This document shows, one piece after another, positions 7,231-62,088 of a stretch of DNA of 64,000 nucleotides. Below the pieces are notes generated by a model. That model worked only from the letters and a program-made list of their open reading frames with translations, ran no database searches and was not told the origin of the DNA. The DNA lies in contig CAYNXC010000001.1 of assembly GCA_964401135.1 (NCBI GenBank), positions 210,264 to 274,263 of the forward strand, read 5' to 3'. Positions within the stretch are counted from its first letter, which is position 1, and every line of letters starts with the position of its first letter. The position numbers were made by a program, and so were the translations under genes. Source of the stretch: an uncultured Candidatus Saccharibacteria bacterium (lineage in GTDB: Bacteria > Patescibacteriota > Minisyncoccia > Phycocordibacterales > UBA9988).

Positions 7231-7374
7231 GTTTCTTATGAAACACTTATGATTTCCTATACAAGATGACCTTTGTCCATGAGAATATCCTTATTTTTAG
7301 CCAATTTGATTTTATCCTATCTGTCTTTTATACACAGTATACACAGATTTATCCACAAAGAGACTGTCTTTTTG

Positions 7375-7445
7375 TGCGGGCAGGGAGAATCGAACTCCCA
7401 TATCCTGCTTGGAAGGCAGGTGTTCTACCATTAAACCATGCCCGC
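7375..7445 (-). tRNA. tRNA-Gly (anticodon UCC)
   Basis: Acceptor GCGGGCA/TGCCCGC, anticodon stem CCTGC/GCAGG with loop CTTCCAA. Confidence 0.8.
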
Positions 7446-7460
7446 TTTCTCTTTTCCTTG

Positions 7461-7532
7461 TGTCCCCGGCAGGACTCGAACCCGCAACGCATGGTCCGAA
7501 GCCATGAATGATATCCATTTCACCACAGGGAC
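7461..7532 (-). tRNA. tRNA-Arg (anticodon UCG)
   Basis: Acceptor GTCCCTG/CGGGGAC, anticodon stem CATGG/CCATG with loop CTTCGGA, T-arm GCGGGTTCGAGTCCTGC. Confidence 0.7.
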
Positions 7533-9092: not shown

Positions 9093-9259
9093 GTTGGCTA
9101 TTTGTCTTATAGAACAAAGAAATTATCTGAAACAAGGGTGGAGAACCTCTATTTAGTGTTCTTTGTCTTAAAAGACAAAAAGGCCTCTGCGTAAGGACAA
9201 ATCATATCTGTCCTTTATTGTACTTTGTCCTTTATATCCGTCAACTCAGTTATCCACAA
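9093..9259. repeat. Repeat-rich intergenic region 3' of xerD
   Basis: Inverted repeat TTTGTCTTAAAAGACAAA, direct repeats of GTCCTTTAT, and several TTGTC/GACAA half-sites. Confidence 0.4.
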
Positions 9260-10180
9260 TTAACCCTTCCGCCCTTTGGCGTGAAAGTTTTGGTGTATCT
9301 CTTTGAGATGCTTATCGGTAACATGGGTATAGATTTGCGTGGTAGAGACAGAAGAGTGACCTAACATCATCTGCACCGACCGGATGTCTGCGCCATTTTG
9401 TAACAAGTCTGTTGCAAATGAGTGGCGTAGGATGTGTGGAGTCATCTTTTTACCAATGCCCGCCTTGACTGCGTACTGTTTTACTATCCGTTCAATACTC
9501 CGCGAGGTAAGGCGCTCACTCTTATTCTTATTGATAGTTGAGAGGCCAACAAAGAGTGCATCCTCCATATCCTTTCTCTTCTTTAAGTACTCATGGAGAG
9601 CATCCTTAGCAGAAGGGGAGAGAAAGACGACGCGGACCTTTTCACCCTTACCGCGAACAGAGAACTCATCCCGCGAGAGATCGATGCTGTCGGTATTGAG
9701 CGAACAGAGCTCCGATACGCGCAAGCCAGTAGAAAAGAAGAGCTCTAGGATTGCCCGGTCGCGGAGCCCTTTTGCTTGGGTAGTATCTGGGGCAGAGAGG
9801 AGGCGTTCTAACTCCGTACCTGAGACAAGATCAAGGTTGCGTGCTGGTGTTTTTGCCAGCTCAATGGTGTCTGGCGCCAGAGAGCTGATCTTTCGCTTCA
9901 CTAGATATCGGAGAAAGGCGCGTAAAGCAATGAGATGATAGTTCTGGGTGTTTCTCTTGAGCGTACCGCCATACTTTTGCCTATTCTCCTGACGATTGAG
10001 CCAGAGACGGTATGAGCGCACAAGCTCCTCTGTTATCAGAGAAGCATCGTCAATACTCGTTTGCTTAATAAAACGAGAGAGATAGCGATCATAATTCTCA
10101 ACTGTTTTGAGGCTACGGCCCTTCTCTATCTCCAGATATTCCAAAAACTCTCGTTTAAGAGCCGTAATATTGTGCGACAT
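9260..10180 (-). CDS. xerD: Tyrosine site-specific recombinase XerC/XerD family
   Basis: C-terminal catalytic motifs HILRHSFAT and LGHSSVSTTQIYTHV (R-H-R-Y signature). Confidence 0.8.
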   Translation of the reverse strand: MSHNITALKREFLEYLEIEKGRSLKTVENYDRYLSRFIKQTSIDDASLITEELVRSYRLWLNRQENRQKYGGTLKRNTQNYHLIALRAFLRYLVKRKISSLAPDTIELAKTPARNLDLVSGTELERLLSAPDTTQAKGLRDRAILELFFSTGLRVSELCSLNTDSIDLSRDEFSVRGKGEKVRVVFLSPSAKDALHEYLKKRKDMEDALFVGLSTINKNKSERLTSRSIERIVKQYAVKAGIGKKMTPHILRHSFATDLLQNGADIRSVQMMLGHSSVSTTQIYTHVTDKHLKEIHQNFHAKGRKG

Positions 10181-11014: not shown

Positions 11015-11500
11015 ATGGAATATCACACTCTATCATTTAAAAAAGATAGGGATGCAGTATCGGAACCTCCAAAATTTTTATATTGGATAGTATTTGACGG
11101 GAATCATACAGACTGCGCTTTTGATGAAATTGCCCTAAAAGCAAGCTCTGAAAAAGATGGTGTTTACCCACTCGTGGTTTGTGGGTGTGGCTATATTGGC
11201 TGTAATGGTATGTATGTCACAACTCGTATTGAAAAAGATGATGTAATCTGGGAAAAATTCTGGCAAGGACAATGTTGTGGGGAAACAGAAAAAGACGACG
11301 AATTATCGGAATTTTCCTTAATTAAGAATAGTGCAAAAGGGAAAAATATTACATTAAAACCGCCTGTAAAATTTCATCTCGGTGAATATCGTGACCTTAT
11401 AGAAACAATAGAGCATGATATAAAAAGTGATCCGATCAGTAGTAAAGAATATGATGAAGCTCTTTCATATTATAAAGATGGTAATGTTTTTAGAATGTAA
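11015..11500 (+). CDS. Hypothetical Cys-rich protein in a low-GC islet
   Basis: 161-aa ORF in a markedly AT-rich stretch, containing CGCGYIGCNG and QGQCCGE Cys clusters. Confidence 0.45.
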   Translation: MEYHTLSFKKDRDAVSEPPKFLYWIVFDGNHTDCAFDEIALKASSEKDGVYPLVVCGCGYIGCNGMYVTTRIEKDDVIWEKFWQGQCCGETEKDDELSEFSLIKNSAKGKNITLKPPVKFHLGEYRDLIETIEHDIKSDPISSKEYDEALSYYKDGNVFRM

Positions 11501-11502
11501 AA

Positions 11503-12006
11503 ATGAATTGGCTATCTAAATTTTTTTTAACATACGGCTTCGGCTCAGTTGGATCCATTGCAAAATGGATGGCAGTGAACTATACAAAAGCTAAGAAAAA
11601 ATTTCCAAAAAAAACTCACCGAGAATTATTACTGCACCTTATTGAACTGCGATACCCAAATGGTAAAGCGATAATAGGCCCTGAACGACTGCCTGAACCG
11701 AGCATGGCAATAATTGAAAAATGCCAAGGATCTTTGGAAAAAATCACTATGTATATAGAACATCTGGAACACAATGAATTGGATGAAGTAAAAATAACTC
11801 GACCATATTTATATAGGGCCGTAAAAAAAATAGTTCGGGAAAGATTAAATAAATTTGCTCCTGATATTAAGAGAGATTTAATAGATGATGCCCTTGAAGT
11901 TTTTAAATCTGGCAAGGGAATTAAGAATGACAATTGGAGTATTGAACCTATAGCAAAAAACTTTTGCTCAATATCTTTTCCAGAAGATAAAGAAACGGAG
12001 AAGTAG
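11503..12006 (+). CDS. Hypothetical protein in a low-GC islet
   Basis: 167-aa ORF, AT-rich, two nucleotides after the previous gene. No recognisable motif. Confidence 0.45.
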   Translation: MNWLSKFFLTYGFGSVGSIAKWMAVNYTKAKKKFPKKTHRELLLHLIELRYPNGKAIIGPERLPEPSMAIIEKCQGSLEKITMYIEHLEHNELDEVKITRPYLYRAVKKIVRERLNKFAPDIKRDLIDDALEVFKSGKGIKNDNWSIEPIAKNFCSISFPEDKETEK

Positions 12007-12037
12007 ACAATTTCTCTTATTCAATCTTAATAATTCC

Positions 12038-12820
12038 TCACGGATTACTACGCGGTAAAGTAGTATAAAATTGATGTACGATTTCTTTCATGTCTTTCAG
12101 TAATTTTATTAGAACCGCATCGACTATTTCTTGAGGGATATTCTTGTAAAATGCTTCAGCGATTGCACCAGAAATACATGCGAGAGTATCGCTGTCTCCT
12201 CCGAGAGTTATCGCATTCCGTACTGCACTTTCAAAATCAGTAGACTCTAAAAAGCACATGATGGCTTCTGGGACTGTTTCTTGACAGGTTTCATTAAAAA
12301 AATATGTTGTCCTGATTTCTTTCAGAGTGCGGCCAAGATCATAATCAAATATTTTTTGGATACTTTGAGTTATATCTTTTTTAGTGACGCCACTTCGAGA
12401 TAAAAAGATTGAAAGAGCAACCGCTTGTGCCCCTTTTATTCCTTCTGAATGATTATGACTTACTTCTGCGCTCTTTTTTGCTTCTCTTAAAACCTGATCT
12501 TCGTTGTGAAAAAACCATCCAATAGAGCTTACGCGCATTGCTGAACCGTTACCGTAGCTGTTGTAGGGTTGTGGATCACGAGACTTAATCCATGAATAAA
12601 AACGGTCTCCATATCCACGATCTAAGTATTTTTGCCCCCATTCTCGCATCGTCAAACCATATTCCTTATGATTTAAAATGGCGTCAGCAACAGCAATTGT
12701 CATAACAGTATCATCAGTAAAATCTGATTCTGTATTAAATAAAGAAAAATCAGGATTAGCACGCTTATATTCAAAAGGTGACCCAATTATGTCCCCAATG
12801 ATTGCCCCTAACATCATCAC
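12038..12820 (-). CDS. ADP-ribosylglycohydrolase (ARH/DraG family)
   Basis: N-terminal GAIIGDIIGSPFE, GNGSAMRVSSIG, and C-terminal GGDSDTLACISGAIAEAFY (dimetal-binding Asp/Thr motifs). Confidence 0.75.
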   Translation of the reverse strand: MMMLGAIIGDIIGSPFEYKRANPDFSLFNTESDFTDDTVMTIAVADAILNHKEYGLTMREWGQKYLDRGYGDRFYSWIKSRDPQPYNSYGNGSAMRVSSIGWFFHNEDQVLREAKKSAEVSHNHSEGIKGAQAVALSIFLSRSGVTKKDITQSIQKIFDYDLGRTLKEIRTTYFFNETCQETVPEAIMCFLESTDFESAVRNAITLGGDSDTLACISGAIAEAFYKNIPQEIVDAVLIKLLKDMKEIVHQFYTTLPRSNP

Positions 12821-39248: not shown

Positions 39249-40496
39249 ATGAAAATTATTCTTCACACACTCGTAGCATTCTCTATTTTTTCAAGCATCA
39301 TCACAGTTGCTTTTGCAGCAGAAGGGGGTGGTATTATTCTCTTAGAGCCGAGTGTGGTAAATGCGGGTGAAAATAGCCGAGTCCAATTTGGTCAGTATAT
39401 GTCAACGCTCTTTACCACCTTTATTACCGTAGCGGCAGTGCTTGCGGTACTTATGATTGTGATTGGCGGCATCCAATACATCACTTCATTCTCTGGTAGC
39501 GGTAAAGAACAGGGGAGGGTGCGCATTACCAATGCTATTTTTGGCCTCCTTTTGGCGGTATCTGCGTTCCTCATTCTCCAAACAGTGAATCCGGACTTAG
39601 TCTCGAGCGACACTCTCTCGCTTGATATTGGTAAGTTCTCTCCTATCACACAAAGTATTGCAAATGGATTATATAGCAAAGATGGAACTCGCGATGAGGC
39701 TCATGAGACTAAAGAAACAGATAAATCTGAGGAGGCCGCTGAATGGGGCCGTTGCACTCAAAATGGGTACAAAAAGTGTGTATGGATGGAAAATTGTGTC
39801 TCCATCGGGCCAGACAACCAACCTCTACCATATGTGGAAATACCAAAAAACAACTGTGACAAGCCGGCTATTGCGGACCAGATTGCCTCTTCTATATGTT
39901 GTGGAATGATAGATACTGAAAATAAAAAATATTATTTTATTAACACTGACGAAAGCTGTATTTCTTCTGCTTATAACAGCCTGAATGAATGTAACTCAGC
40001 AAAACCGAGTAACACTGCATGTAGGGATACCGAGATGACTCGTAGAGCCAACGAGACTTTAAATTACCCTCAATGTAGCAATCCTTCTGGGGGTAGTGAA
40101 GGGGGAGACACTTCAACAATTGGACAATGGCAGTATCAAACAGGGATTGAGAGACAAGCGGGAGACATGTCTAGCTCCGTTACTTCATTACTCTCCTGCA
40201 TGAGAGAGAAAATTCCTGACACATCTGTCGGGCAGATTTCTTCAATCAGTGACTCTAGACATATAGGAAACTTGTCTTCTTGTAATCAGGCAAACTGTAG
40301 TGGATGTTCTCACTCATGTAGATCTTGTCACTACGGGGGAGGAGTTTCTGGAGCTAAATCTATGGCAGTTGACTTCGGTGATGAGTGGAATAAGAAAAAG
40401 ATTATAAGTGCAGCAAGAGCATGTGACCCAGAGGCCTATATTCTTGACGAAGGGAACCATATCCACGTAAGCACAAGCGCCTGTCCTCGTGATTAA
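39249..40496 (+). CDS. Pilin-like (VirB2/TrbC-like hairpin) N-terminus fused to a Cys-rich C-terminal domain with a putative M15-like zinc-hydrolase motif
   Basis: Signal peptide plus two long hydrophobic helices separated by a short loop. C-terminal region has more than 20 Cys, SCHYGGGVSGAKSMAVDF and EGNHIHVS. Confidence 0.45.
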   Translation: MKIILHTLVAFSIFSSIITVAFAAEGGGIILLEPSVVNAGENSRVQFGQYMSTLFTTFITVAAVLAVLMIVIGGIQYITSFSGSGKEQGRVRITNAIFGLLLAVSAFLILQTVNPDLVSSDTLSLDIGKFSPITQSIANGLYSKDGTRDEAHETKETDKSEEAAEWGRCTQNGYKKCVWMENCVSIGPDNQPLPYVEIPKNNCDKPAIADQIASSICCGMIDTENKKYYFINTDESCISSAYNSLNECNSAKPSNTACRDTEMTRRANETLNYPQCSNPSGGSEGGDTSTIGQWQYQTGIERQAGDMSSSVTSLLSCMREKIPDTSVGQISSISDSRHIGNLSSCNQANCSGCSHSCRSCHYGGGVSGAKSMAVDFGDEWNKKKIISAARACDPEAYILDEGNHIHVSTSACPRD

Positions 40497-40504
40497 ATAG
40501 AACT

Positions 40505-41758
40505 ATGTCTTCCACTATTGTTAAAATTCTCTTCGGTCTCGCCATCGTCATACTCCTTTCCATTGGTGGGGGACTCATCTGGTACACACTCTTCTACCAA
40601 GCAGTGCCAGAGCCAATCAATACCGCGACAAGTTCTCCAGAGAATCTCTTTCCTGTTGGCGGAGAAGTAGAAGTAAGTACGGCAACCAGCACCGCAAGCT
40701 CTACACTTGGCGTGGCGGTAACAGGAGGAGGAGTAAGGGCGCGAGAGTTGCTTTCAAACCCGATCGCCGGATTTGGAGTATTTGGCTACTCAGCAACAAA
40801 TACGGTAGTTATTGCGGTGGATCGGAGCAATGGCCATGTGTACCGCATCTCTATTGCGTCTAGCACGGTTGAAAAAATCGCCAACACAACACTAGTAGGA
40901 GTGCAGGAGGCGTATGTAGGGGAGACTAAGAGCCTGTACTACATTATTTCTCGCTACGAGGCAAATTCAGGCTCACATACGCATATACAAAGCATTAAGA
41001 AGAGCTTGATAGCCATTACTGCAAGCTCAACAGTAAATTCGGGATCTCTACTCCCTCAAACGATCACGAGTATTGCTCTCTCCCCTAAACGAGATAGGTA
41101 TGCAACAGTGGTGAAGGGGAGTACTGGAGGGAGTATTGTATACATCACCGACTTTGCAACTGGGAAAAAACGGGAGTTGTACCGCTCACCACTTACTGAA
41201 TGGAATCTCCTCTGGCCCAACGAGAGTACACTCACCTTAGAGACAAAGGGATCATCTCGTGTACGAGGCACTCTTTTAAGTATCAACGCACAAACAGGAG
41301 CAGCGACGCGGATACTCGGTAATATAGCAGGGCTTACCTCACTTCCATCTCCCTCTCTCTCATACATCCTCGCTTCAGAGAGTAGAGATGATGGTGGAAT
41401 CAACCTATTCCGCTACACACCAAAATCGGGAGACCGAACACCACTCCCATTCTCTGTATTCCCTTACTGGTGTGTATGGGCACAAAAAACAGAAGGGTTG
41501 CTGTATTGTGCAGCTCCAGACACTATTCCTTCTGTACCCTTCCCCGACACATGGTACCGAGGGGAACTTTCTTTTAACACAAAAATATGGGAGTTTAATG
41601 TAAAAACAGGGGATAGTGAGATCGTGTGGAATCCAAATCTCACAGGGACTCTAAGAACAGAGGCACGGAACCTTGCTCTAAACTCTTCCGGGACACTCCT
41701 CTTCTACATAGACGACAATAATCTGACACTCTGGTCAGTGCGTCTCACTGATCTATAA
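40505..41758 (+). CDS. Membrane-anchored beta-propeller (TolB/WD40-like) protein
   Basis: N-terminal TM, then repeated beta-blade-like segments (ATVVKGSTGGSIVYITDFATGKKREL...). Confidence 0.45.
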   Translation: MSSTIVKILFGLAIVILLSIGGGLIWYTLFYQAVPEPINTATSSPENLFPVGGEVEVSTATSTASSTLGVAVTGGGVRARELLSNPIAGFGVFGYSATNTVVIAVDRSNGHVYRISIASSTVEKIANTTLVGVQEAYVGETKSLYYIISRYEANSGSHTHIQSIKKSLIAITASSTVNSGSLLPQTITSIALSPKRDRYATVVKGSTGGSIVYITDFATGKKRELYRSPLTEWNLLWPNESTLTLETKGSSRVRGTLLSINAQTGAATRILGNIAGLTSLPSPSLSYILASESRDDGGINLFRYTPKSGDRTPLPFSVFPYWCVWAQKTEGLLYCAAPDTIPSVPFPDTWYRGELSFNTKIWEFNVKTGDSEIVWNPNLTGTLRTEARNLALNSSGTLLFYIDDNNLTLWSVRLTDL

Positions 41759-41765
41759 GCGTATA

Positions 41766-42464
41766 CTACGCGTGGAGGCGTTTATAGCCCTGTTCGTAAG
41801 CAATAGAGAAGAGGGTGTTAGTAAGCCAGTACAGAGCAACTGCGGCAGGGAGGCCAGCTGATACCACACCAATCACTATCGGCATAATATACTTCATTTG
41901 GAACTGCAGACTTCGATTAAAATCCTCAGCAAACGAGCGTTCTTCAGTTTGATTTGGAGAGGATGAGGGGAGAGAGAGTTTTGTGTGAATAAACTGTGCA
42001 ATGGTAATAATTACTGCAAACACAATACTTTTTGCACCTAGATCAACACCAAGAAAGATGGCATTAACATACGATGGCGCATGAACAAATGAGTAGAGCC
42101 CGTACTTGAGAGACTCCAGACCATCCCGAAAGACAAGAAATAAGCCAATAAATATGGGTATTTGCACTAAAATAACGGCAAACCCAGCAAAGGGATTGAC
42201 CCGGTGTTCTTTATAGAGCGCCATGACGCGACGAGCCTCCTCTTCACGATTACCAACAGTGTCTTTTTTGATTTTTTTCAGCTCCGGTTCTATTTTTTTC
42301 AGCTCTTTCTGTGTAGATAGAGCTCTATTTTGGAGAGGGATAAGCACTATCTTTACCAGCACTGTAAGAACAATAATAGAAAGTCCAATACTATTCCCAG
42401 GGAGTACTCCTGTTAAAAACACGAGGGCATTATAGAGAGGTTCGGATATGAGTGTATGGAACAT
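41766..42464 (-). CDS. yidC: Membrane protein insertase YidC/Oxa1 (short form)
   Basis: Conserved YidC core LIPLQNRALSTQKELKKIEPELKKIKK...NPFAG. Position is downstream of rnpA. Confidence 0.85.
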   Translation of the reverse strand: MFHTLISEPLYNALVFLTGVLPGNSIGLSIIVLTVLVKIVLIPLQNRALSTQKELKKIEPELKKIKKDTVGNREEEARRVMALYKEHRVNPFAGFAVILVQIPIFIGLFLVFRDGLESLKYGLYSFVHAPSYVNAIFLGVDLGAKSIVFAVIITIAQFIHTKLSLPSSSPNQTEERSFAEDFNRSLQFQMKYIMPIVIGVVSAGLPAAVALYWLTNTLFSIAYEQGYKRLHA

Positions 42465-42471
42465 ACAGTGA

Positions 42472-42804
42472 CTACCTTAGCATATTCTTGATAGAAGTGA
42501 GAAGTTCATCTGTCTTCATCTTTAACTCCTTCTCACTCATTGTAGAGGGGTACGCAGTGAGACGGAGTACCATATCTACACCCTTGCCAATAAAATTATG
42601 TTGTTCAATACTCGTGTAGAGTATGCGTTTGACACGATGGCGATCAACAGAGCTCTTCACCACCACTTTTGGGACAACCACAGAGATTTTCGTCTCTGTG
42701 GAGGAGTGGGCAATGCGAATAGTAGTGAAAGGATTAGTGTATGTTAACCATCTTCTACGGATAGAAAAATCGGCCCTCTTCAGCCGATTTTTTTTAGGCA
42801 ACAT
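42472..42804 (-). CDS. rnpA: Ribonuclease P protein component
   Basis: MLPKKNRLKRADF.. basic N-terminus, between rpmH and yidC. Confidence 0.75.
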   Translation of the reverse strand: MLPKKNRLKRADFSIRRRWLTYTNPFTTIRIAHSSTETKISVVVPKVVVKSSVDRHRVKRILYTSIEQHNFIGKGVDMVLRLTAYPSTMSEKELKMKTDELLTSIKNMLR

Positions 42805-42815
42805 ACACAGTATGG

Positions 42816-42950
42816 CTACACAGCAAGCTTTTTGCGACCTTTTCGCATCCGCCGCAACAAAACACCACGCCCAGAAGAAGTCTTTGTTCTGGTAAGAAAC
42901 CCATGGGTCTTCTGCCTCTTTCTATTCTTTGGATTATAGGTAAACGACAT
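42816..42950 (-). CDS. rpmH: 50S ribosomal protein L34
   Basis: Own translation: [44 protein letters not shown] (44 aa). Below the ORF-track size cutoff. Confidence 0.8.
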
Positions 42951-43096
42951 ACGAATGGAGTATACAGAATGTATATACTTTTTTCAAGAGAATATACTTA
43001 TCCACCATAATCCACTCCTTATAAACATCTTGGATAGGTTTGTAGTTTAGTACTAAGAGTACTATAATCGCAACATAAAAATAACGAGCGGACCCT

Positions 43097-44440
43097 ATGG
43101 ACAACAAAGATCTTTGGGACAACGCCCTTGCGGAGATTGAAGTATATGTATCAAAAGCTAATTTTGGAACATGGTTTCGTAATACAGTAATTCTAAAGAC
43201 GGAAGGTGGGACAGTACATCTCGGAGTACCTAATGCTTTTGTGAAGGATTGGCTATCTAATAAATACCATCTTTCTATTCTTAAAGCGTTGAGAAATCAC
43301 TCTGAACAAATAAAGCATGTTGAATATATTGTTATTCGTGGAGAAAAGATAAAGATAGAAGAACTGCCAGTTAAACCCCTCTTTCGCGATCAATTAGAGC
43401 TATCTGAGTTGTATGTAAACAAAGAAGACAACTTAAACCCAAAATACATCTTTGATTCTTTTATTGTTGGACCATTTAACGAGACAGCATACGCCGCAGG
43501 ACAAGCAATCATTAAATCTCCAGGGACTACATACAATCCCTTATACATCTATGGAGGTACAGGGTTAGGAAAAACACACCTCACCCAAGCAATAGGGAAC
43601 ACCATCAAACAATTACACCCAAATAAAAAAGTTTACTACATTACTTCGGAGAAATTTGTTATCGAGGTAGTAAATGCAATTCAGAACAATAAAGCAAATG
43701 TATTCAAGGAAAAATATCGTAAGTATGATGTGTTTATTATGGATGATGTTCAATTTATTGCTAATAAAGATAAAACACAAGAAGAATTATTCCATTTATT
43801 TAATAGCCTATACGATCAAAATAAGCAGATTATTTTTTCATCAGATAAAATTCCAAAATATATACCAAACTTAGAAGAACGGTTACGATCTCGTTTTGAA
43901 GGTGGAATGATTATTGATATTGCACTACCAGACTACGAATCTCGCCTAGCAATATTAAAATCTAAGATAAAACAGAGTGATTTTTCTCCATCTGATGAGA
44001 TCATTGAATATGTTGCGTCAGTTATTAAGGGAAATATTAGAGAATTAGAAGGTGTTCTTAACTCTATTATTTGCCAATGCCAGTTAAAAAATAGAAATTT
44101 GAATTTGAGTGAGGTAAAAAACCTTATAAAAAATACCATAAAACCACAAAAAACCATCTCTATTAAGGATGTTCTTAAGATTATTGCTGGGTTTTATAGT
44201 ATTGATGAGAAGGTACTCTATGAAAAAACAAGGAGGAAGGAGGTAGTAAAACCGAGACAAATTATTATGTATATCCTCCGTGAAGATTTCAACATCTCTT
44301 ATCCTTACATTGGTCAAAAATTAGGTGGGAGAGATCACACAACTGTGATTCATGCATATGAAAAAATAAAAAAAGAAGTAAAACAGAATAATCTTATTAC
44401 ACAAGAAGTCGAACAAATACGGTCATTACTATACAACTAA
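43097..44440 (+). CDS. dnaA: Chromosomal replication initiator DnaA
   Basis: AAA+ Walker A GGTGLGKTHL, box VII, and the C-terminal DNA-binding signature KLGGRDHTTV. Confidence 0.9.
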   Translation: MDNKDLWDNALAEIEVYVSKANFGTWFRNTVILKTEGGTVHLGVPNAFVKDWLSNKYHLSILKALRNHSEQIKHVEYIVIRGEKIKIEELPVKPLFRDQLELSELYVNKEDNLNPKYIFDSFIVGPFNETAYAAGQAIIKSPGTTYNPLYIYGGTGLGKTHLTQAIGNTIKQLHPNKKVYYITSEKFVIEVVNAIQNNKANVFKEKYRKYDVFIMDDVQFIANKDKTQEELFHLFNSLYDQNKQIIFSSDKIPKYIPNLEERLRSRFEGGMIIDIALPDYESRLAILKSKIKQSDFSPSDEIIEYVASVIKGNIRELEGVLNSIICQCQLKNRNLNLSEVKNLIKNTIKPQKTISIKDVLKIIAGFYSIDEKVLYEKTRRKEVVKPRQIIMYILREDFNISYPYIGQKLGGRDHTTVIHAYEKIKKEVKQNNLITQEVEQIRSLLYN

Positions 44441-44657
44441 TATGTATAACTTGTGAATTATTAGTGAATAAAAAGTAGATAGTAAATTTTAAAAATAAAA
44501 AAATAAAAGATAATTCACTTACATACATACCTTATGTTCATACTATATCCACAATTCATAATAGTAAAAAATTAACACTAAACTCCTTTATAAGACTTAT
44601 CCACTTTATCAACAATACTAATAGTAATAAGTATTTAAAAAAAAGAATTTAATTATT
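44441..44657. other. Candidate oriC: AT-rich dnaA-dnaN intergenic region with DnaA-box-like 9-mers
   Basis: More than 80% AT. Contains ATATCCACA (44555-44563), TTATCCACT (44597-44605) and TGTGAATTA (44453-44461). Further boxes TTATCCACC, TAATCCACT and TGGATAGGT lie upstream of dnaA (42998-43039). Confidence 0.5.
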
Positions 44658-45752
44658 ATGAAAGTAGAATGTGTAAAAGAAAAACTAAAGGACGCATTAC
44701 TTACTGCTGATCGTATTACAGGTAAAAATTTATCGCTCCCCATCCTTTCTTATATTTATCTGCGAGCAATAAAAAATAAAATAATTATTAGATCAACAAA
44801 CCTTGATATTGGTGTTGAGATTATACTACCAGCAAAAGTAGTGAGAGAAGGACTAGTTGTTGTTCCTGGTTCATTACTTATTTCTGTACTATCAAATTCA
44901 ACCCATGAGATGATTACCCTTGAAGAAGTGAATGGTAATATAACAATTACTACACCAAATTTAAATACAATTATTAAGAGTGTCCCGAGTGATGATTATC
45001 CAAATTTACCTAAAAACGAAACAAGTGATGAGTATACACTACATACTTCACTCCTTACTTTAGGTATACAATCTGTTGTATTTGCGGCCTCATTGAGTGA
45101 TATTAAACCAGAAATAGCGAGTGTTTATATCTACTCTCACGACTCTCAATTATTATTTGTTTCGACTGATGGATTTAGATTGGCTGAAAAAAAGTTTCCA
45201 ATAAAATTATCACATGAATTTAAAGCCATTATTCCTTATAGAAATGCACTTGAAATAGCAAAGATCTTAGTTGGAAGTGATGAAGATTCTAAGATATTAC
45301 TCTCACCATCACTTATATCAATTCAAAGTGGGAACTATACTATTACTTCACGACTTATTGATGGGGTATATCCAGATTATCCACAATTAATACCATCATC
45401 ATTTTCTACTACATCAAGAATACCAAAACAGGACCTTGTAAACACATTACGACTCGCTCATATTTTTTGTGATAGAACAAATCAAATTCAACTTACTATT
45501 CAAGTGAGTGAAGCACTTTTTATGATTTATTCTCAAAATACTGAGAAGGGTGAATACTCGTCATCATTACAGTCAATTGTTGATGGTGAAGATCTACAGA
45601 TGAATGTTAATGTACGATATTTAGTGGATATATTATCCATTCTTCACAACCCAACAGTGTTTATTGGGTGTAATGGTCGTGGTAAGCCACTTTTTGTTCG
45701 GGATGATGGTGATAATTCTTTTCTATATCTTGTCATGCCAATGAATCGGTAA
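44658..45752 (+). CDS. dnaN: DNA polymerase III beta sliding clamp
   Basis: Position after dnaA, roughly 364 aa, three-domain clamp-like pattern. Confidence 0.8.
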   Translation: MKVECVKEKLKDALLTADRITGKNLSLPILSYIYLRAIKNKIIIRSTNLDIGVEIILPAKVVREGLVVVPGSLLISVLSNSTHEMITLEEVNGNITITTPNLNTIIKSVPSDDYPNLPKNETSDEYTLHTSLLTLGIQSVVFAASLSDIKPEIASVYIYSHDSQLLFVSTDGFRLAEKKFPIKLSHEFKAIIPYRNALEIAKILVGSDEDSKILLSPSLISIQSGNYTITSRLIDGVYPDYPQLIPSSFSTTSRIPKQDLVNTLRLAHIFCDRTNQIQLTIQVSEALFMIYSQNTEKGEYSSSLQSIVDGEDLQMNVNVRYLVDILSILHNPTVFIGCNGRGKPLFVRDDGDNSFLYLVMPMNR

Positions 45753-45755
45753 TGT

Positions 45756-46016
45756 ATGAACTCAATCTCTGATTTTTTAGGTAAATTTTCACAATTTCAA
45801 GATAATCAATCTCGGATAAAAAAAACGATATCCAGTATTATTCAAAATATATCAGGGATGGATATTCCTGAAACAAATATAGATATTATAGAAGATAGAG
45901 TCTATCTTAAGGTACACCCGGCTATATTAAATGAAATACTCATTCACAAATCTGTGGTGCTAACAGAAATTGAAAAAAAAACAAAAAAAATGTATAGAAT
46001 TATCGGCTTATCGTAG
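45756..46016 (+). CDS. DUF721-like small protein (possible DciA-like helicase-loader homologue)
   Basis: 86 aa immediately after dnaN, with a pattern reminiscent of DUF721. Weak support. Confidence 0.35.
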   Translation: MNSISDFLGKFSQFQDNQSRIKKTISSIIQNISGMDIPETNIDIIEDRVYLKVHPAILNEILIHKSVVLTEIEKKTKKMYRIIGLS

Positions 46017-48177
46017 AGGTAGCTGTGGTGGTATTTATAGGCGCAGTAGTAATCGTCGGTTTGTTAACATAGTGATGCTGTTGCGCCCACTTCTGTATAG
46101 GGGTTTCCCAAAGTATATACTGCGGATCGTTCTCTGGGCGGATAGGTCGTGCACCTAATGGGTTATTTTTGTTTACCCAATATAGAATTGAGTGAATGTT
46201 TGCTGCCACTTCTCCTTGCCAATATCCTCGTAATACAGGTTTAATATCAGTGGGTGTAGTTTCCGGTTTTGTGAATGACTCTTTGGGAATAATCGTTAAA
46301 GCTTCACTCATAAATGTATTCCAGAGAGGCGCAACAATATAGCGCGCCACTCGTTTCTCCATAGGTGTATTGTCGTTATTACCAACCCATGCTCCAACAC
46401 TAATAGTTGGTGTATACCCAAGTATCCACGCGTCTTTGTAATCATTTGTGGTACCAGTTTTTACCGCAACATCATATCCAGGGAAGTAGAGAGGGGAGTT
46501 TGCTCCAAATGCAGGTGTCCTTGCTACATTATCTGAAAGTACATCAGTAATTTGACGAGCAACATTAACGGTGATGACTTGTTTGGGGTTTTGTGTGAAC
46601 TCCTCAACAATTCTCCCTTTTGAATCTTCTATTTTTAAGATAAATGCAGGCTGGTTGCGTACTCCATCATTCGCAAATACACCATAAGCACTCGTAAGTT
46701 CAAGCAATGTTACTTCACCGCCACCAAGTGCGAGAGAGAGACCGTACTGATTTGAATTACCAAGATTTTTAATACCCATTACATTTGCTGTATTAATTGA
46801 GTCGCTTATCCCTGCAAGGTACATTACTTTTACTGATGGGATGTTAATCGACTGTGCAAGTGCGTTTCGCATACTAATTGGACCACGGAATATTGAGTCG
46901 TAGTTTTCTGGGTGATAACAAGAGGATCCATCCGCGCCTGTTTTTGATGTCCCGTCAGGATTACAAGAAGTATCAAACTCAGTAAATAAATCAAAAAGGA
47001 CAGTGTCTGGTGTGTATCCTTTTGCAAATGCGGTTGCGTATGCGAAGGGTTTAAATGTAGATCCCGGTTGGCGGTGTGCAAGGGTGATATTGAAGTTGCC
47101 CTCATTGTCTCTATCAAAATAATTTCGTGATCCTACCATTGCGAGAATTTGTCCTGTCTTTGGGTCTAGTGCTACGAGCCCTGCATTCTTTGCATTGAAA
47201 TTAGTCTCATTCTCTGCTGCGTATTTTGCAACAATTTCTTGTGCACGACTTTGAAGGTGCCAATCAAGTGTTGTGACTACAGAGTATCCCTCTTGTTCAA
47301 TCGTCTCTCTCCCGTACTTCTCTTCAAGGTATGAGCGGACATAATCTACAAAGTGTGGGGCTTTGATACCGCCTCCGCCTCGTTGGTTGAAGGTTATTTT
47401 CTCTGATCGTGCTTGGATGAATTGTTCTTTATTAATCTTTCCTAAATCAAGCATCCTCTGCAGAATAAGATTCTTTCGTTCCTCAAGCCTGTCTTGGTGG
47501 GACCCGTACGGTGAGAGGTATGATGGAGCTTGCGGGAGTGCCGCAAGGTATGCAGATTCCGCAAGACTTAAGACTCGAGCGCTCTTCCCAAAGAATGACT
47601 GCGACGCCTCCTCAACCCCATAAATACTTCCGCCATAGGGAGCTTCATTTAAGTAAATAGCAAGAATATCATCCTTAGCCATTGAGCGCTCTAGTTTTAC
47701 TGCAAGGATTACTTCTTTTATTTTTCTGGTGATACTCCTATCACTAGTCAAGATTGCCATTTTAATAACTTGCTGGGTTATGGTTGAGCCACCCTGCCGT
47801 ACCGATCCAGCCCCTAGGTTTACGAGGAATGCCCGTGCGATACCTCTAGGATCTACACCATTGTGCTCAAAAAAGTTAGCATCCTCGATTGCTATTGTTG
47901 CGTCCTGGACTGTCTTTGCTATGTCGCTTAATGGGACAATAGTCCTCTTTACATTCCCGTGTACATCGTAGAGTACCACCTTCCCCGTGCGATCATAAAT
48001 CTTAGTTGATTCAAAGATGTCTCGAGCTTGGAATGAGTCAAATGTTGGTATGTCTAAAGTGACTGCCCATAAGACAGAGACGCCGGTGGTGACAAAAAAA
48101 ATAATCCCCGCAAGTGCAAGGCTCTTGAGTGCAAGACGAGTGGTGGAACTCTGTTTAATTTTCTTTACCCAACCCAT
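46000..48177 (-). CDS. Class A penicillin-binding protein (transglycosylase/transpeptidase) PBP1A
   Basis: Glycosyltransferase motifs EDANFFEHNGVD and GGSTITQQ. Transpeptidase SxxK (STFK) and KTGT. Confidence 0.85.
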   Translation of the reverse strand: MGWVKKIKQSSTTRLALKSLALAGIIFFVTTGVSVLWAVTLDIPTFDSFQARDIFESTKIYDRTGKVVLYDVHGNVKRTIVPLSDIAKTVQDATIAIEDANFFEHNGVDPRGIARAFLVNLGAGSVRQGGSTITQQVIKMAILTSDRSITRKIKEVILAVKLERSMAKDDILAIYLNEAPYGGSIYGVEEASQSFFGKSARVLSLAESAYLAALPQAPSYLSPYGSHQDRLEERKNLILQRMLDLGKINKEQFIQARSEKITFNQRGGGGIKAPHFVDYVRSYLEEKYGRETIEQEGYSVVTTLDWHLQSRAQEIVAKYAAENETNFNAKNAGLVALDPKTGQILAMVGSRNYFDRDNEGNFNITLAHRQPGSTFKPFAYATAFAKGYTPDTVLFDLFTEFDTSCNPDGTSKTGADGSSCYHPENYDSIFRGPISMRNALAQSINIPSVKVMYLAGISDSINTANVMGIKNLGNSNQYGLSLALGGGEVTLLELTSAYGVFANDGVRNQPAFILKIEDSKGRIVEEFTQNPKQVITVNVARQITDVLSDNVARTPAFGANSPLYFPGYDVAVKTGTTNDYKDAWILGYTPTISVGAWVGNNDNTPMEKRVARYIVAPLWNTFMSEALTIIPKESFTKPETTPTDIKPVLRGYWQGEVAANIHSILYWVNKNNPLGARPIRPENDPQYILWETPIQKWAQQHHYVNKPTITTAPINTTTATSTISR

Positions 48178-49560: not shown

Positions 49561-49661
49561 ATAATTACATTAACTTAATAATGAAAGTCTCTGCGAGACC
49601 ATTTTTTTGTATCATACCACCAATCATTTGCAATGCGGTGCTATGATAGCGTGTGGATAAG

Positions 49662-54512: not shown

Positions 54513-54959
54513 ATGCAACGAAGTACCCTCAGTGCAGAAGAGATGAAAGGGTGTGCCAAAGAGATCATAGCACCACTTCTTCCTCAAGAGAGGAGTCATG
54601 CCCTCGTGCTTGCGCTCTCAGGAGATTTAGGAGCAGGGAAGACGACCTTTACCCAAGGAGTGGCAGAAGCGCTCGGCATTCGTGAAGCGGTGGTTAGTCC
54701 AACCTTCACCATCATGAGGATCTATAAAATTCAAAAAGAAGGCCCCTTCACTCATCTCGTTCACATAGATGCCTATCGTTTAGAGAGTGCAGATGAACTG
54801 TTTCGTCTCGGGTGGGATGCCCTCGTGAAGGATCCGCAGTGCTGTATTGTGATAGAGTGGCCGGAGCGTGTGAGCGACTGTATCCCTCCTTCTGCCCACT
54901 CTATTATTCTTAGACTTGTCTCTGATGCTCGCCATGAAATCAGTTACCAAAAAAACTAA
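54513..54959 (+). CDS. tsaE: tRNA threonylcarbamoyladenosine biosynthesis protein TsaE
   Basis: P-loop GDLGAGKTTF followed by SPTFT, the canonical YjeE/TsaE motifs. Confidence 0.75.
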   Translation: MQRSTLSAEEMKGCAKEIIAPLLPQERSHALVLALSGDLGAGKTTFTQGVAEALGIREAVVSPTFTIMRIYKIQKEGPFTHLVHIDAYRLESADELFRLGWDALVKDPQCCIVIEWPERVSDCIPPSAHSIILRLVSDARHEISYQKN

Positions 54960-57315
54960 TACTTTTCATCCACGTTTGCTTGTCCTCCTGGATGCGCACG
55001 CGATCATCCATCGTGCCTACCATGCACTCCCAGATCTACGCACTAAGGCGGGGGAGCCGACAGGCGGACTTTACGGGATAGCTTCAATGCTGATGAAGAT
55101 TATTACAGAGCTTAACCCTGATTACCTCGTTGCCTGCTATGATCTCCCCGAACCAACTTTCCGTAAGAAAATATATGAGGACTATAAAGCTGGGAGAGTA
55201 AAAGCTGATGATGATTTAATTACACAGATTGAGCGCTCGCGGAGCATCTTCACCGCCTTTGGGATTCCAATCATTTCACATCCCGGATTTGAGGCAGATG
55301 ACATACTTGGTACCTTAGTGGAGCGTTTTAAAAAAGAAAAAAACCTCTCCATCATTATTGCTTCTGGTGATATGGATACACTCCAGTTGGTGGATGGAGA
55401 ACGCGTGCGTGTATATACCTTGCGCAAAGGGCTTACCGACACGGTTCTCTATGATGAAAAGACAGTGAAAGAACGATTTGGTTTTGAACCAATATTAGTT
55501 GCCGACTACAAAGGTCTCCGAGGCGATCCATCAGATAATATTGTAGGAGTGCCGGGGATAGGGGAGAAGACGGCCACAGAACTTATTACACGGTTTGGCA
55601 CCATAGAAGAGATTTATCAGAAACTCAAAAAGACCCCGGAAGTATTTACAAAGTCCGGTATCAAGCCTCGCGTGGTGAGTCTGCTTACCGAGAATGAAGA
55701 AGAGGCGATGTTTTCAAAAACACTCGCGACCATACGCCGTGACGCTCCCATCCAATACACGCTCCCAGAGGGAAATTGGAGGGAGGGAGTGGGTGAGCCT
55801 GCCTTAGTGAGTCTTTTTAATGAACTTGAGTTTGAGAGTCTTAAACGCCGAGCCCTTGCGATCCTGCGTAACACTCCTTTGGATGCGTCAGCTTCAACGA
55901 CTACTGAAGAATCACCCCACGATGAGGAGCTGGGTGAATCACTCCATCGAGCCCGCATCGCACTCTGGCTCCTTGACTCTACGCGTACCACAGCAAGTCG
56001 CACTGATGTGAGTATCTACACTAAGAAAAAAGATATTTCCTCTGCTCTCGCTACGCTTGAAAAAGAATTGAAAGAGAAGGATCTCTTGTCTGTGTACGAA
56101 GAAATAGAGCTCCCTCTCATCCCTATTCTCGCACGGGCGGAGAATCGTGGGATATTGGTGGACACTGCACTCCTCCGCTCACTCTCGGTCGAGTATCACA
56201 AAAGACTCGGTGTGATTGAACGGCGTATCTACAAGGAGGCAGGAGAAGAGTTTAATATCAATTCCCCAAAACAGATTTCAGGGCTCCTGTTTGAAAAACT
56301 AGGACTTTCCACCAAAGGAATTGCGAAGACAGGTGGAGGAGCGCTCTCTACTAAAGAAAGTGAATTAGCAAAATTACAAGGGGAGCACTCAATTATTGAT
56401 GATATTCTCCTCTATCGTGAGCTACAAAAGTTACTGGGAACCTACATTGACGCCATCCCCTCATTAGTTGATGGAGAGAGTCGGCTCCATACGCACTTGA
56501 ATCAGACGGGGACGACTACAGGGAGAATGTCTTCAGACAGCCCTAATCTCCAAAACATCCCTGCGCGAGATGGTTACGGTGTAGCCATCAGAGAGGCTTT
56601 CATTGCGGCTCCCGGCCATACCTGGGTCTCCTGTGATTACTCACAGATTGAGATGCGCGTGCTTGCAGTGATGGCGGAGGATGAGGAGTTAATTAAAATT
56701 TTTAAAGAAGGAAAGGATGTACACAGCTCTGTTGCCTCACGCGTATTTCGTGTGCCAGAAGGTGAGGTGACCAAGGATATGCGACGGAAGGCGAAGGTGA
56801 TCAACTTTGGCATTATCTACGGGATGGGGGTGCAGGCACTCCGAAAAAATCTTGGGACGGATTTGAAAGAAGCGAAAGAGTTTTACGAGCAGTACTTTGC
56901 GAGCTTCCCACGCATCGAGCTCTTTTTTGAAGGGGTTAAAGAGTATGCACGCAGAAACGGTTATACAAAAACATTCTTTGGACGGAGGCGCTACTTCCCG
57001 GAGATCAAATCCCACCTACCCTACTTGCGCGCGAGCGCCGAACGGATGGCAATGAACGCTCCCTTGCAGGGGACTGCGGCAGACCTCATCAAGATTGCGA
57101 TGCGTCGCTCTGAAGAGATACTGACAGAGCGGGGTCTCTCGGGGAGGGCGCATCTCATTCTACAAGTACATGATGAGCTTATTTATGAAGTGGAGCGCGA
57201 AGTGGTGGAAGAAGTCTCCATGATTATCACAGAGGCAATGGAAGGCGCCGCACATGTTGCCGTGCCGCTCTCTGTCTCGCTAGGCATAGGAAGAAATTGG
57301 AAGGAGGCAGGATAG
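54934..57315 (+). CDS. polA: DNA polymerase I (5'-3' exonuclease plus polymerase; 3'-5' exonuclease motifs not evident)
   Basis: N-terminal 5' nuclease (LLVLLDAHAIIHRAYHA, GIPGIGEKTA). Polymerase motifs A (DYSQIEMRVLA), B (RRKAKVINFGIIYG) and C (VHDEL). Confidence 0.85.
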   Translation: MKSVTKKTNTFHPRLLVLLDAHAIIHRAYHALPDLRTKAGEPTGGLYGIASMLMKIITELNPDYLVACYDLPEPTFRKKIYEDYKAGRVKADDDLITQIERSRSIFTAFGIPIISHPGFEADDILGTLVERFKKEKNLSIIIASGDMDTLQLVDGERVRVYTLRKGLTDTVLYDEKTVKERFGFEPILVADYKGLRGDPSDNIVGVPGIGEKTATELITRFGTIEEIYQKLKKTPEVFTKSGIKPRVVSLLTENEEEAMFSKTLATIRRDAPIQYTLPEGNWREGVGEPALVSLFNELEFESLKRRALAILRNTPLDASASTTTEESPHDEELGESLHRARIALWLLDSTRTTASRTDVSIYTKKKDISSALATLEKELKEKDLLSVYEEIELPLIPILARAENRGILVDTALLRSLSVEYHKRLGVIERRIYKEAGEEFNINSPKQISGLLFEKLGLSTKGIAKTGGGALSTKESELAKLQGEHSIIDDILLYRELQKLLGTYIDAIPSLVDGESRLHTHLNQTGTTTGRMSSDSPNLQNIPARDGYGVAIREAFIAAPGHTWVSCDYSQIEMRVLAVMAEDEELIKIFKEGKDVHSSVASRVFRVPEGEVTKDMRRKAKVINFGIIYGMGVQALRKNLGTDLKEAKEFYEQYFASFPRIELFFEGVKEYARRNGYTKTFFGRRRYFPEIKSHLPYLRASAERMAMNAPLQGTAADLIKIAMRRSEEILTERGLSGRAHLILQVHDELIYEVEREVVEEVSMIITEAMEGAAHVAVPLSVSLGIGRNWKEAG

Positions 57316-61489: not shown

Positions 61490-61527
61490 CGTGGACAGAG
61501 GGGGAGTCTGTGGTATTATTTCGCGAG

Positions 61528-61600
61528 CCGCCCATAGCTCAGTCGGTAGAGCAGCTCCCTTTTAAGGAGAGGGTCGTAGGTTCGAATCCTACTGGGCGGA
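61528..61600 (+). tRNA. tRNA-Lys (anticodon UUU)
   Basis: Acceptor CCGCCCA/TGGGCGG, D-arm GCTCAGTCGGTAGAGC, anticodon loop CTTTTAA, T-arm GTAGGTTCGAATCCTAC. Confidence 0.8.
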
Positions 61601-61602
61601 TA

Positions 61603-62088
61603 ATGATGCAAAACTCTCTCTCCCTTATCCTCCACAATGTGCGAAGCTGTGAAAATGTGGGGAGTATCTTGCGTAGCGCGGATGCAGCAGGAGTAGAAAA
61701 AGTGTACCTCTGTGGGATCACCCCTGCACCAATAGATCGTTTTGGGCGTCCTAATCCTCGCGTGCTCAAGGCCTCTCTTGGAGCGGAGAAAAATGTAGAG
61801 TGGGAAGAGAGAGAAGATAGCATGGCGCTCATTGAGGATTTACGGCAAAAAGATGTTCGTATCTATGCTTTGGAACAGAGTAAAGGCTCGGTAGATTATC
61901 GAACCGTCAAGATAAATACTGCGGCGGCACTTATTGTGGGGAATGAGGTTGACGGAATAGGAGATGAGCTTCTTACACTCGCTGATACTGTTATTGAGAT
62001 CCCTATGCGTGGTATAAAAGAGTCACTCAATGTCTCTGTTGCCTGCGGGATTATCCTGTTCTCTTTTAGTAACGATACTCCGCAATAA
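61603..62088 (+). CDS. SpoU/TrmH-family RNA 2'-O-methyltransferase
   Basis: SPOUT motifs NVGSILRSADAAG, IVGNEVDGI and IPMRGIKESLNVSVACGIILF. The ORF-track N-terminus overlaps tRNA-Lys, so the start is moved to MMQNS. Confidence 0.75.
   Translation: MMQNSLSLILHNVRSCENVGSILRSADAAGVEKVYLCGITPAPIDRFGRPNPRVLKASLGAEKNVEWEEREDSMALIEDLRQKDVRIYALEQSKGSVDYRTVKINTAAALIVGNEVDGIGDELLTLADTVIEIPMRGIKESLNVSVACGIILFSFSNDTPQ

Follow-up and report, generated by a model that had tools for sequence, protein, structure and literature searches.

In origins of the Bacillus subtilis type, the spacer that separates dnaA from dnaN contains the origin, with DnaA boxes in tandem, a gap of 4 bp, three or more DnaA-trios and an A/T tract; upstream of dnaA come a second cluster of boxes and, as the neighbour on the left, rpmH. 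The basal unwinding system (BUS) of such origins is recognized by a DnaA box with no more than two mismatches, preferably in a tandem pair, and by three or more DnaA-trios (NAN, consensus 3'-GAT-5') no farther than 16 bp from the box (PMC8287927). Escherichia coli has the same gene families and an oriC that is itself A+T-rich (a G+C fraction, hereafter GC, of 0.41 over 232 bp), but there oriC and the dnaA-dnaN operon are separate loci 42 kb apart and the two genes have a normal third-position composition. The locus described here is the dnaA-dnaN region of a 64,000-nucleotide stretch of DNA, called the window below (contig CAYNXC010000001.1 of assembly GCA_964401135.1, positions 210,264 to 274,263), deposited under the name of an uncultured Candidatus Saccharibacteria bacterium. 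The locus itself is of the ordinary dnaA-oriC-dnaN type; what is unusual is a conserved, kilobase-scale A+T shadow over its coding DNA. It is likely, in our judgement, that the low GC of this region is a vertically inherited, maintained and strand-symmetric A+T enrichment centred on oriC. No prior description of a shadow on this scale was found in full-text literature searches, the coverage of which was incomplete.

The window has an overall GC of 0.460, and its 1-kb profile falls to 0.341, 0.281 and 0.314 between 43 and 46 kb against 0.41-0.52 almost everywhere else, the sole other dip being at 11-13 kb. In 200-bp windows the trough (42951-46016), which takes in the rpmH-dnaA intergenic region, dnaA, the origin spacer, dnaN and a small DciA-like open reading frame (ORF) called orf86 here, has a GC of 0.215-0.39 against about 0.42-0.50 outside. 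Its minimum (0.215-0.225) lies in the dnaA-dnaN spacer, and its edges lie near 42950, at the start of rpmH, and near 46000, where the change is abrupt and falls at the convergent overlap of orf86 with the gene for a class A penicillin-binding protein (PBP1A). The initiator gene dnaA (43097-44440, + strand; 447 aa) has a GC of 0.327, with 0.440, 0.266 and 0.275 at the first, second and third codon positions (GC1, GC2 and GC3); dnaN, encoding the beta sliding clamp (44658-45752, + strand; 364 aa), is the deepest coding part of the trough at 0.324 (0.449, 0.342 and 0.181), and orf86 (45756-46016, + strand) stands at 0.280 (0.345, 0.253 and 0.241). The corresponding background for 55 genes of the window is 0.472 (0.553, 0.410 and 0.454). 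The low-GC block over these three genes is therefore real, and its deviation is confirmed. An earlier note on this DNA had placed the block at about 30-36% GC between flanks of 45-50%, and the per-gene values and the 200-bp profile agree with it; the figure for the flanks holds in general, except that yidC and rnpA (0.42-0.43) and PBP1A (0.43) are slightly lower. The domains of both core proteins exceed the Pfam cut-offs, these being domain I, the AAA+ domain III and the helix-turn-helix domain IV of DnaA (DnaA_N, PF11638; Bac_DnaA, PF00308; Bac_DnaA_C, PF08299; curated cut-offs) and the three DNA_pol3_beta domains of DnaN (PF00712, PF02767, PF02768).

The 217-bp spacer between dnaA and dnaN (44441-44657, + strand) is by its sequence a canonical predicted origin. 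Its GC of 0.184 over the full 217 bp is the lowest among the intergenic regions of the window. It holds a DnaA box at 44545-44553 and a tandem pair, TTATCCACT (44597-44605) and TTATCAACA (44606-44614), with one mismatch each and both kept in six members of the window's clade; after a 4-bp gap (ATAC) come the trios TAA TAG TAA TAA at 44619-44630, followed by an A/T tract that reaches the ATG of dnaN. In an alignment of the spacer from the six members CTAATA(G/A)TAA is invariant, and trios are present in nearly all of the dnaA-dnaN spacers of about 75 species. The box pair and the trios are those that the BUS calls for, and a compositional (GC-skew) switch lies at the same site. In the region upstream of dnaA (42951-43096, + strand) there is a DnaA box, TTATCCACC, at 42998-43006, followed by a second, box-like sequence, ATAATCCAC, at 43007-43015, and by a conserved TATAAT at 43063-43068; these upstream boxes and TATAATCG are invariant in the alignment of the six clade members. 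Thus the locus shares with the B. subtilis type the position of the spacer, the tandem boxes, the 4-bp gap, the three or more NAN trios (TAA/TAG, i.e. 3'-GAT/AAT-5'), the A/T tract, the second box cluster upstream of dnaA and rpmH on the left. It differs in that the A+T enrichment is not limited to the roughly 200-bp spacer and extends 1.5-4 kb into coding DNA, affects synonymous and non-synonymous sites alike, and is conserved across a class of the candidate phyla radiation (CPR).

The third-position GC skew of the + strand changes sign at the spacer in genes of both orientations when about 70 species are pooled. In the window it passes across the spacer from -0.055 to +0.094 for + strand genes (p 6e-7) and from +0.009 to +0.111 for - strand genes (p 0.012), with dnaA at -0.02 and dnaN at +0.17; this flip is independent evidence that replication starts there. 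A second origin at about 7.3 kb was considered and rejected: boxes and the minimum of the GC-skew walk coincide there, but two tRNA genes are located in this region. Perfect TTATCCACA boxes outside the origin lie at 7328-7357, 9250-9258 and 49652-49660. The first of these is a pair that coincides with the lowest point of the raw skew walk and lies just downstream of the tRNA genes (7374-7532, - strand), the second abuts a recombinase gene and the third is upstream of ruvC; these boxes may be DnaA-regulated promoters or chance matches.

The extent of the enrichment was measured as a GC3 deficit, with all ORFs binned by 500 bp of distance from the spacer and the baseline taken beyond 4.5 kb. To the right, successive bins of the clade give -0.263, -0.235, -0.182, -0.115, -0.090, -0.082, -0.053, -0.039 and -0.015, and those of 59 other species give -0.126, -0.096, -0.081, -0.052, -0.027 and -0.021; to the left the values are -0.155, -0.162, -0.138, -0.07, -0.07 and -0.04 for the clade and -0.039, -0.023 and -0.009 for the other species. 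The e-folding distance computed from these bins is about 1.4-1.8 kb, and the deficit decays over some 3-4 kb. The enrichment is most pronounced towards dnaN, on the unwinding side, and crosses gene borders and strands: the decay continues through orf86 into the opposite-strand PBP1A gene (46000-48177, - strand; Pfam Transgly and Transpeptidase), which forms the right shoulder and in which the clade deficit goes from -0.10 to -0.03 along the gene, its oriC-proximal 3' part being the more A+T-rich at synonymous sites. On the left, yidC, rnpA and rpmH (41766-42950, - strand; Pfam 60KD_IMP and Ribonuclease_P, and the rpmH ORF) make a weak shoulder, with a clade deficit in yidC that grows from 0 to -0.07 towards dnaA. 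Gene halves of lower GC3 face oriC in dnaN (p 2e-7), in dnaA (its 3' end, p 0.01) and in PBP1A (p 0.07). This within-gene comparison was replaced by a cross-species test of proximity over 67 species, in which the dnaN deficit correlates with that of the proximal, middle and distal thirds of PBP1A at rho 0.74, 0.51 and 0.43, respectively; the thirds have deficits of -0.117, -0.071 and -0.062 in deep-trough species and are flat at about -0.025 in shallow ones.

The shift towards A/T is found in all three codon positions and in intergenic DNA. Residues of the FYMINK group make up 0.31-0.44 of the proteins in the block against 0.25, and among two-fold codons those ending in C and those ending in G are both depleted. 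Since GC skew is not amplified near the origin in the pooled relatives, the local enrichment is strand-symmetric. The trough resembles GC skew in being centred on the origin, where the ordinary skew switch is also present at the spacer, but skew is replichore-wide and strand-asymmetric whereas the trough is local, kilobase-scale and strand-symmetric. In the E. coli control neither gene has a deficit (GC3 of 0.615 for dnaA and 0.594 for dnaN against 0.579) and the neighbours of oriC are without a kilobase-scale deficit, so the trough is not intrinsic to these genes or to origins generally. The "strong local compositional constraint around oriC" that the earlier note had offered as one of two explanations thus stands as a description, with the origin in the spacer and a decay by distance in about 70 species.

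Across relatives, dnaN GC3 lies below that of the other ORFs of the locus in 69 of 75 species (median -0.10, Wilcoxon p 1e-13) and dnaA GC3 in 59 of 81 (median -0.02), and, for the two genes combined, the window ranks third in depth in the species set. Every clade member has the trough, with GC3 for flank, dnaA and dnaN of 0.394, 0.213 and 0.192 in L059, 0.390, 0.282 and 0.198 in L011, 0.582, 0.396 and 0.282 in L017, 0.372, 0.274 and 0.164 in L014, and 0.329, 0.281 and 0.153 in L018. To a first approximation its depth is an offset without dependence on background GC3 (slope 0.89; Spearman -0.18, p 0.13), and its amplitude is lineage-specific: the trough of this clade is very deep, whereas in most of the class it is weak or moderate. 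An extreme is found in Vogelbacteria CG22_combo_37_9 (L040, PCSX01000035.1), where dnaN GC3 is 0.030 with a flank GC3 of 0.26, and GC at conserved four-fold degenerate sites (GC4) of dnaN is 0.000. At the other end, the complete genome of Campbellbacteria GW2011_OD1_34_28 (L047, CP011215.1) is the sole locus without a box or trio in its spacer (151 bp) and is also without a trough (+0.03 and +0.07); replication may start at another site in this genome. The chances seem to us evenly balanced that the shadow is a property of the whole class of CPR/Patescibacteria, in which the origin would cast a strand-symmetric A+T enrichment with GC3 lowered by up to 0.26 and an e-folding distance near 1.5 kb, at steady state and with an amplitude set by lineage.

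The DnaA homologs are all from Patescibacteria, at 94, 87, 83 and 80% identity and then at a plateau of 64-69%, and their source labels include Vogelbacteria, Nomurabacteria and Paceibacterota. Relatives at 94, 87, 82 and 68% DnaA identity have a common gene order, namely type IV secretion system (T4SS)-like genes, yidC, rnpA, rpmH, dnaA, dnaN, the small ORF, PBP1A (- strand), tyrS, ruvC, yebC, ruvB and pilB, and a scan of species-representative genomes found the same synteny in 80 further loci at 96 to 59% DnaA identity. In the window the neighbours YidC, RnpA, PBP1A and TyrS are confirmed by Pfam; rpmH is a 44-aa ORF (42816-42950) whose orthologous loci have an L34 Pfam annotation. The host is a Paceibacteria-type ('Vogelbacteria'-like) member of the Patescibacteria, and the block is its native replication-initiation locus. 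The relatives of the window are ranked in the same order by eight proteins. Neighbour-joining trees of DnaA+DnaN and of PBP1A+TyrS+YidC+RuvB, built from the same 43 contigs, agree on the topology of the clade, each node of which has 100% bootstrap, the two distance matrices are correlated (r 0.85, Mantel p 0.001), and both trees have the same Vogelbacteria-like sister genomes (L027, L029, L034, L035 and L040), which also carry deep troughs. Identity at four-fold sites between the window and L017, L014 or L018 is only 0.02-0.09 above the expectation from composition, and with the sister group it is about 0 above it; despite this near-saturation, GC4 of dnaA and dnaN is far below that of the flanks in each genome. 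The four-fold sites have turned over while each genome has kept its trough, which indicates a local steady state and not foreign DNA that has yet to ameliorate.

Three observations on these relatives may be added. DnaA is unusually conserved between the window and L014 or L018 (81-82%, where DnaN is at 45%, YidC at 46-49% and TyrS at 54-55%), and its identity falls steeply to 69% or less outside the clade. Two loci, L053 (DATDTO010000038.1) and L074 (DATGWK010000074.1), have the GenBank titles 'archaeon' and 'Nanoarchaeia archaeon' yet their yidC-rpmH-dnaA-dnaN synteny is bacterial and their DnaA is about 60% identical to that of the window; mis-binning or mislabelling is the probable reason. 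The 'Saccharibacteria' label on many other loci seems generic.

Vertical descent, steady state, centring on the origin, dependence on distance and strand symmetry have been shown for the trough; its cause we infer. The cause that we tentatively prefer, though at rather less than even odds, is selection for low duplex stability, or for another physical property of the DNA, in the few kilobases around the origin, which would operate in the setting of small genomes poor in accessory factors. Selection is favoured because the enrichment is strand-symmetric, affects every class of site, is found even where the genome is already A+T-rich and peaks on the unwinding side.

A number of observations weigh against this selective account, or against an origin-centred trough. 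No functional reason is known for which kilobases of A+T-rich DNA would be needed. Synonymous divergence in the trough is about that of the flanks, so that neither is hypermutation supported nor selection proven. The counts of DnaA boxes and of trios and the length of the spacer are unrelated to trough depth in about 75 species, and spacer GC explains it weakly. DnaA boxes within the genes do not exceed the expectation from synonymous shuffling (2 observed in dnaN against 2.45 expected). About 40% of the total-GC deficit of dnaA is due to amino-acid composition and is common even to relatives that lack a trough; dnaA GC2 is about 0.27 in all of them, L016 among them. Control genes differ by +-0.03 between their halves in arbitrary direction, and the within-gene differences described above are no larger, so the within-gene test is weak alone; part of the gradient could be gene-specific values ordered by chance. 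The synteny is universal in the sample, and hence no rearrangement separates position from gene identity. Finally, raw all-position GC skew has no clear inflection at 44.5 kb in the window. An extended DnaA-binding platform inside the genes was also considered and rejected, given the lack of box enrichment; the box that is conserved at codon 240 of dnaN is imposed by the amino acids encoded there.

A mutational explanation is somewhat doubtful, though nearly as plausible as selection. On this view nothing is selected, and a strand-symmetric bias linked to initiation adds G:C to A:T changes to DNA that lies no more than one or two kilobases from oriC, for instance because the open bubble leaves it single-stranded for long or because a less accurate polymerase carries out the early synthesis. 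The smooth decay with distance across genes and strands, its length scale near 1.5 kb, the involvement of every class of site, the asymmetry towards the unwinding side and the persistence of the trough in very A+T-rich genomes (such as L040, with its dnaN GC3 of 0.03) would all be expected of it. However, the lack of amplified GC skew near the origin is contrary to strand-specific deamination, which was rejected as a local cause since the C-versus-G asymmetry is the ordinary replichore skew; moreover, synonymous divergence is not raised in the trough relative to the flanks, a gene of the uracil-DNA glycosylase (UDG) family is present, and E. coli is without such a shadow. It may be mentioned here that the Pol I homolog of the window (54916-57315, + strand) has Pfam 5'-3' exonuclease and polymerase A domains and no 3'-5' proofreading exonuclease domain at E values up to 1e-5, which could bear on mutational hypotheses.

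It is improbable that the low GC reflects gene-specific codon usage, with dnaA, dnaN and the small ORF weakly expressed or slowly translated, free of any preference for codons ending in C or G, and ordered into a gradient by coincidence. The four-fold-site loss in dnaN is mainly of C in most species, rpsO and pnp have a high GC3 (0.56 and 0.53), gradients within genes are no bigger than in the control genes, and the steepest change comes at the end of the operon, all of which such usage would explain. It would not explain why the shift to A/T also takes in intergenic DNA, the first two codon positions and those two-fold codons that end in G, or why ruvC, tsaE and UDG, which are presumably of low expression, stay at a GC3 of at least 0.43. 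Furthermore, the deficit of the opposite-strand PBP1A gene scales with proximity and with the dnaN deficit of the species, the 3' end of dnaA and the 5' end of dnaN are the lower halves and face oriC, and the E. coli genes have no deficit.

A recombination coldspot, at which weaker GC-biased gene conversion around the origin would let composition relax to an A+T-rich mutational equilibrium, is more improbable again. The synonymous composition of the trough is like that of a probable accessory island in the window (11015-12820, described below), and among contigs that are identical in the trough the flanks diverge by 1-4%, though these contigs were ascertained on DnaA identity. Against a coldspot, depth does not grow with background GC3 (the slope and correlation were given above), and the trough persists where genome GC3 is 0.18-0.26, with dnaN driven to 0.03-0.12. 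The density and direction of single-nucleotide polymorphisms in L001-L010 give no guidance here, since these contigs were retrieved by exact DnaA identity and the near-zero diversity in the linked block is ascertainment. In four of them (L003, L005, L010 and L004) the dnaA-dnaN block is identical to that of the window, the left flank (39400-42950) differs by 1-4% and the right flank by no more than 0.4%. The divergent left flank comprises the pilin-like and 417-aa ORFs of the T4SS-like cluster, which suggests recombination or diversifying surface proteins beside the origin.

The other explanation in the earlier note, xenologous replacement, by which the dnaA-dnaN-orf86 module would have come from a low-GC donor and not yet ameliorated, did not survive and is very improbable. 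As in genomic islands and cases of xenologous displacement, GC and codon usage are atypical and there is a sharp right edge at a gene junction; the block is also like the probable accessory island in synonymous composition, and there is a gap in DnaA identity between the clade (at least 81%) and all others (no more than 69%). Such islands differ, however, from what is found here. The DnaA+DnaN tree is congruent with that of the four flanking proteins and shares its sister group, the block has identical synteny in about 80 species and stands at the same site in all sampled relatives with no patchy presence, and its offset is maintained in each lineage although four-fold sites are nearly saturated. 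At its borders there is no integrase or mobility gene and no tRNA or other RNA family, and repeats there are only short and at chance level. In addition, a weaker form of the same trough is present in 69 of 75 species, and the deficit reaches into PBP1A. Replacement is rejected on the congruent trees, the universal synteny, the steady-state composition and the absence of border scars, and a congruent phylogeny is one of the outcomes that the earlier note itself had named as refuting it. As for a chimera of assembly or binning, in which a low-GC fragment was joined to a higher-GC genome, the composition contrast alone speaks for it and it is scarcely credible, because the identical DnaA occurs in the same arrangement in 16 contigs from several independent sequencing projects (5 of 10 such contigs that were fetched match the window over all aligned bases), relatives assembled by other groups have it too, and the junctions fall inside conserved synteny.

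The island that makes the second dip of the profile (11015-12820) has a GC of 0.34-0.38 and a GC3 of 0.23-0.28. It contains two hypothetical ORFs and an ADP-ribosylglycohydrolase gene, sits between rpsO/NYN-nuclease and pnp, which are usually adjacent, and lies near a gene for a XerC/D-like tyrosine recombinase (9260-10180); PADLOC found no matches in it. It looks like a genuine accessory insertion.

The small ORF that ends the block (orf86, 45756-46016, + strand) encodes 86 aa and begins 4 nt past the dnaN stop, and an ORF of 83-87 aa directly follows dnaN in at least 60 species. The earlier note had labelled it DUF721; Pfam does not bear this out for the window copy, whereas the predicted fold does. 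The family (PF05258, DciA, formerly DUF721) gives no match to the window protein and four close orthologs even at E values up to 10, and it matches 8 of 60 orthologs weakly (best E 0.0028), being the sole recurrent family among them. Structure prediction gives a KH-like fold that resembles DnaA domain I, and its best matches are solved DciA structures. A position next to dnaN and oriC, in the dnaN operon, is that of one of the two known classes of dciA, and a conserved tryptophan of the DANL domain is critical in mycobacterial DciA (PMC5720831). The position of orf86 downstream of dnaN and its predicted fold are those of DciA from Mycobacterium tuberculosis (Rv0004) and Vibrio cholerae in dnaN(-recF) operons, but orf86 is only 86 aa long, consists of the domain alone without a C-terminal tail, has no significant Pfam match and contains no tryptophan, and recF is absent from this operon. 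With neither the tryptophan nor the tail, membership of DciA is unproven, and orf86 is called DciA-like, a minimal protein with the DUF721 fold that may act as a helicase loader or operator; so small a DciA-like protein is the likely helicase-loading partner in this group.

Elsewhere in the window, a 'tRNA-Stop' with anticodon tta reported by ARAGORN at 61528-61600 (+ strand) is a register error. The tRNA itself is confirmed by Rfam (71 bits), and canonical numbering gives the anticodon loop C-U-UUU-A-A, so it is tRNA-Lys(UUU). An ORF at 61510-62088 overlaps this gene, and its 5' end is doubtful.

A strong compositional anomaly over core genes is in this case not foreign, and island finders based on GC would flag the origin as an island. 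In CPR genomes, where raw GC skew is weak, the GC3 trough, the third-position skew flip and the box/trio module together offer a cheap marker of oriC. If the A+T shadow is what it appears to be, it would imply that selection acts on physical DNA properties well outside the known elements of oriC, or else that initiation leaves an undescribed mutational footprint, and the synonymous sites of dnaA, dnaN and their neighbours would then be a readout of origin biology in uncultured bacteria.

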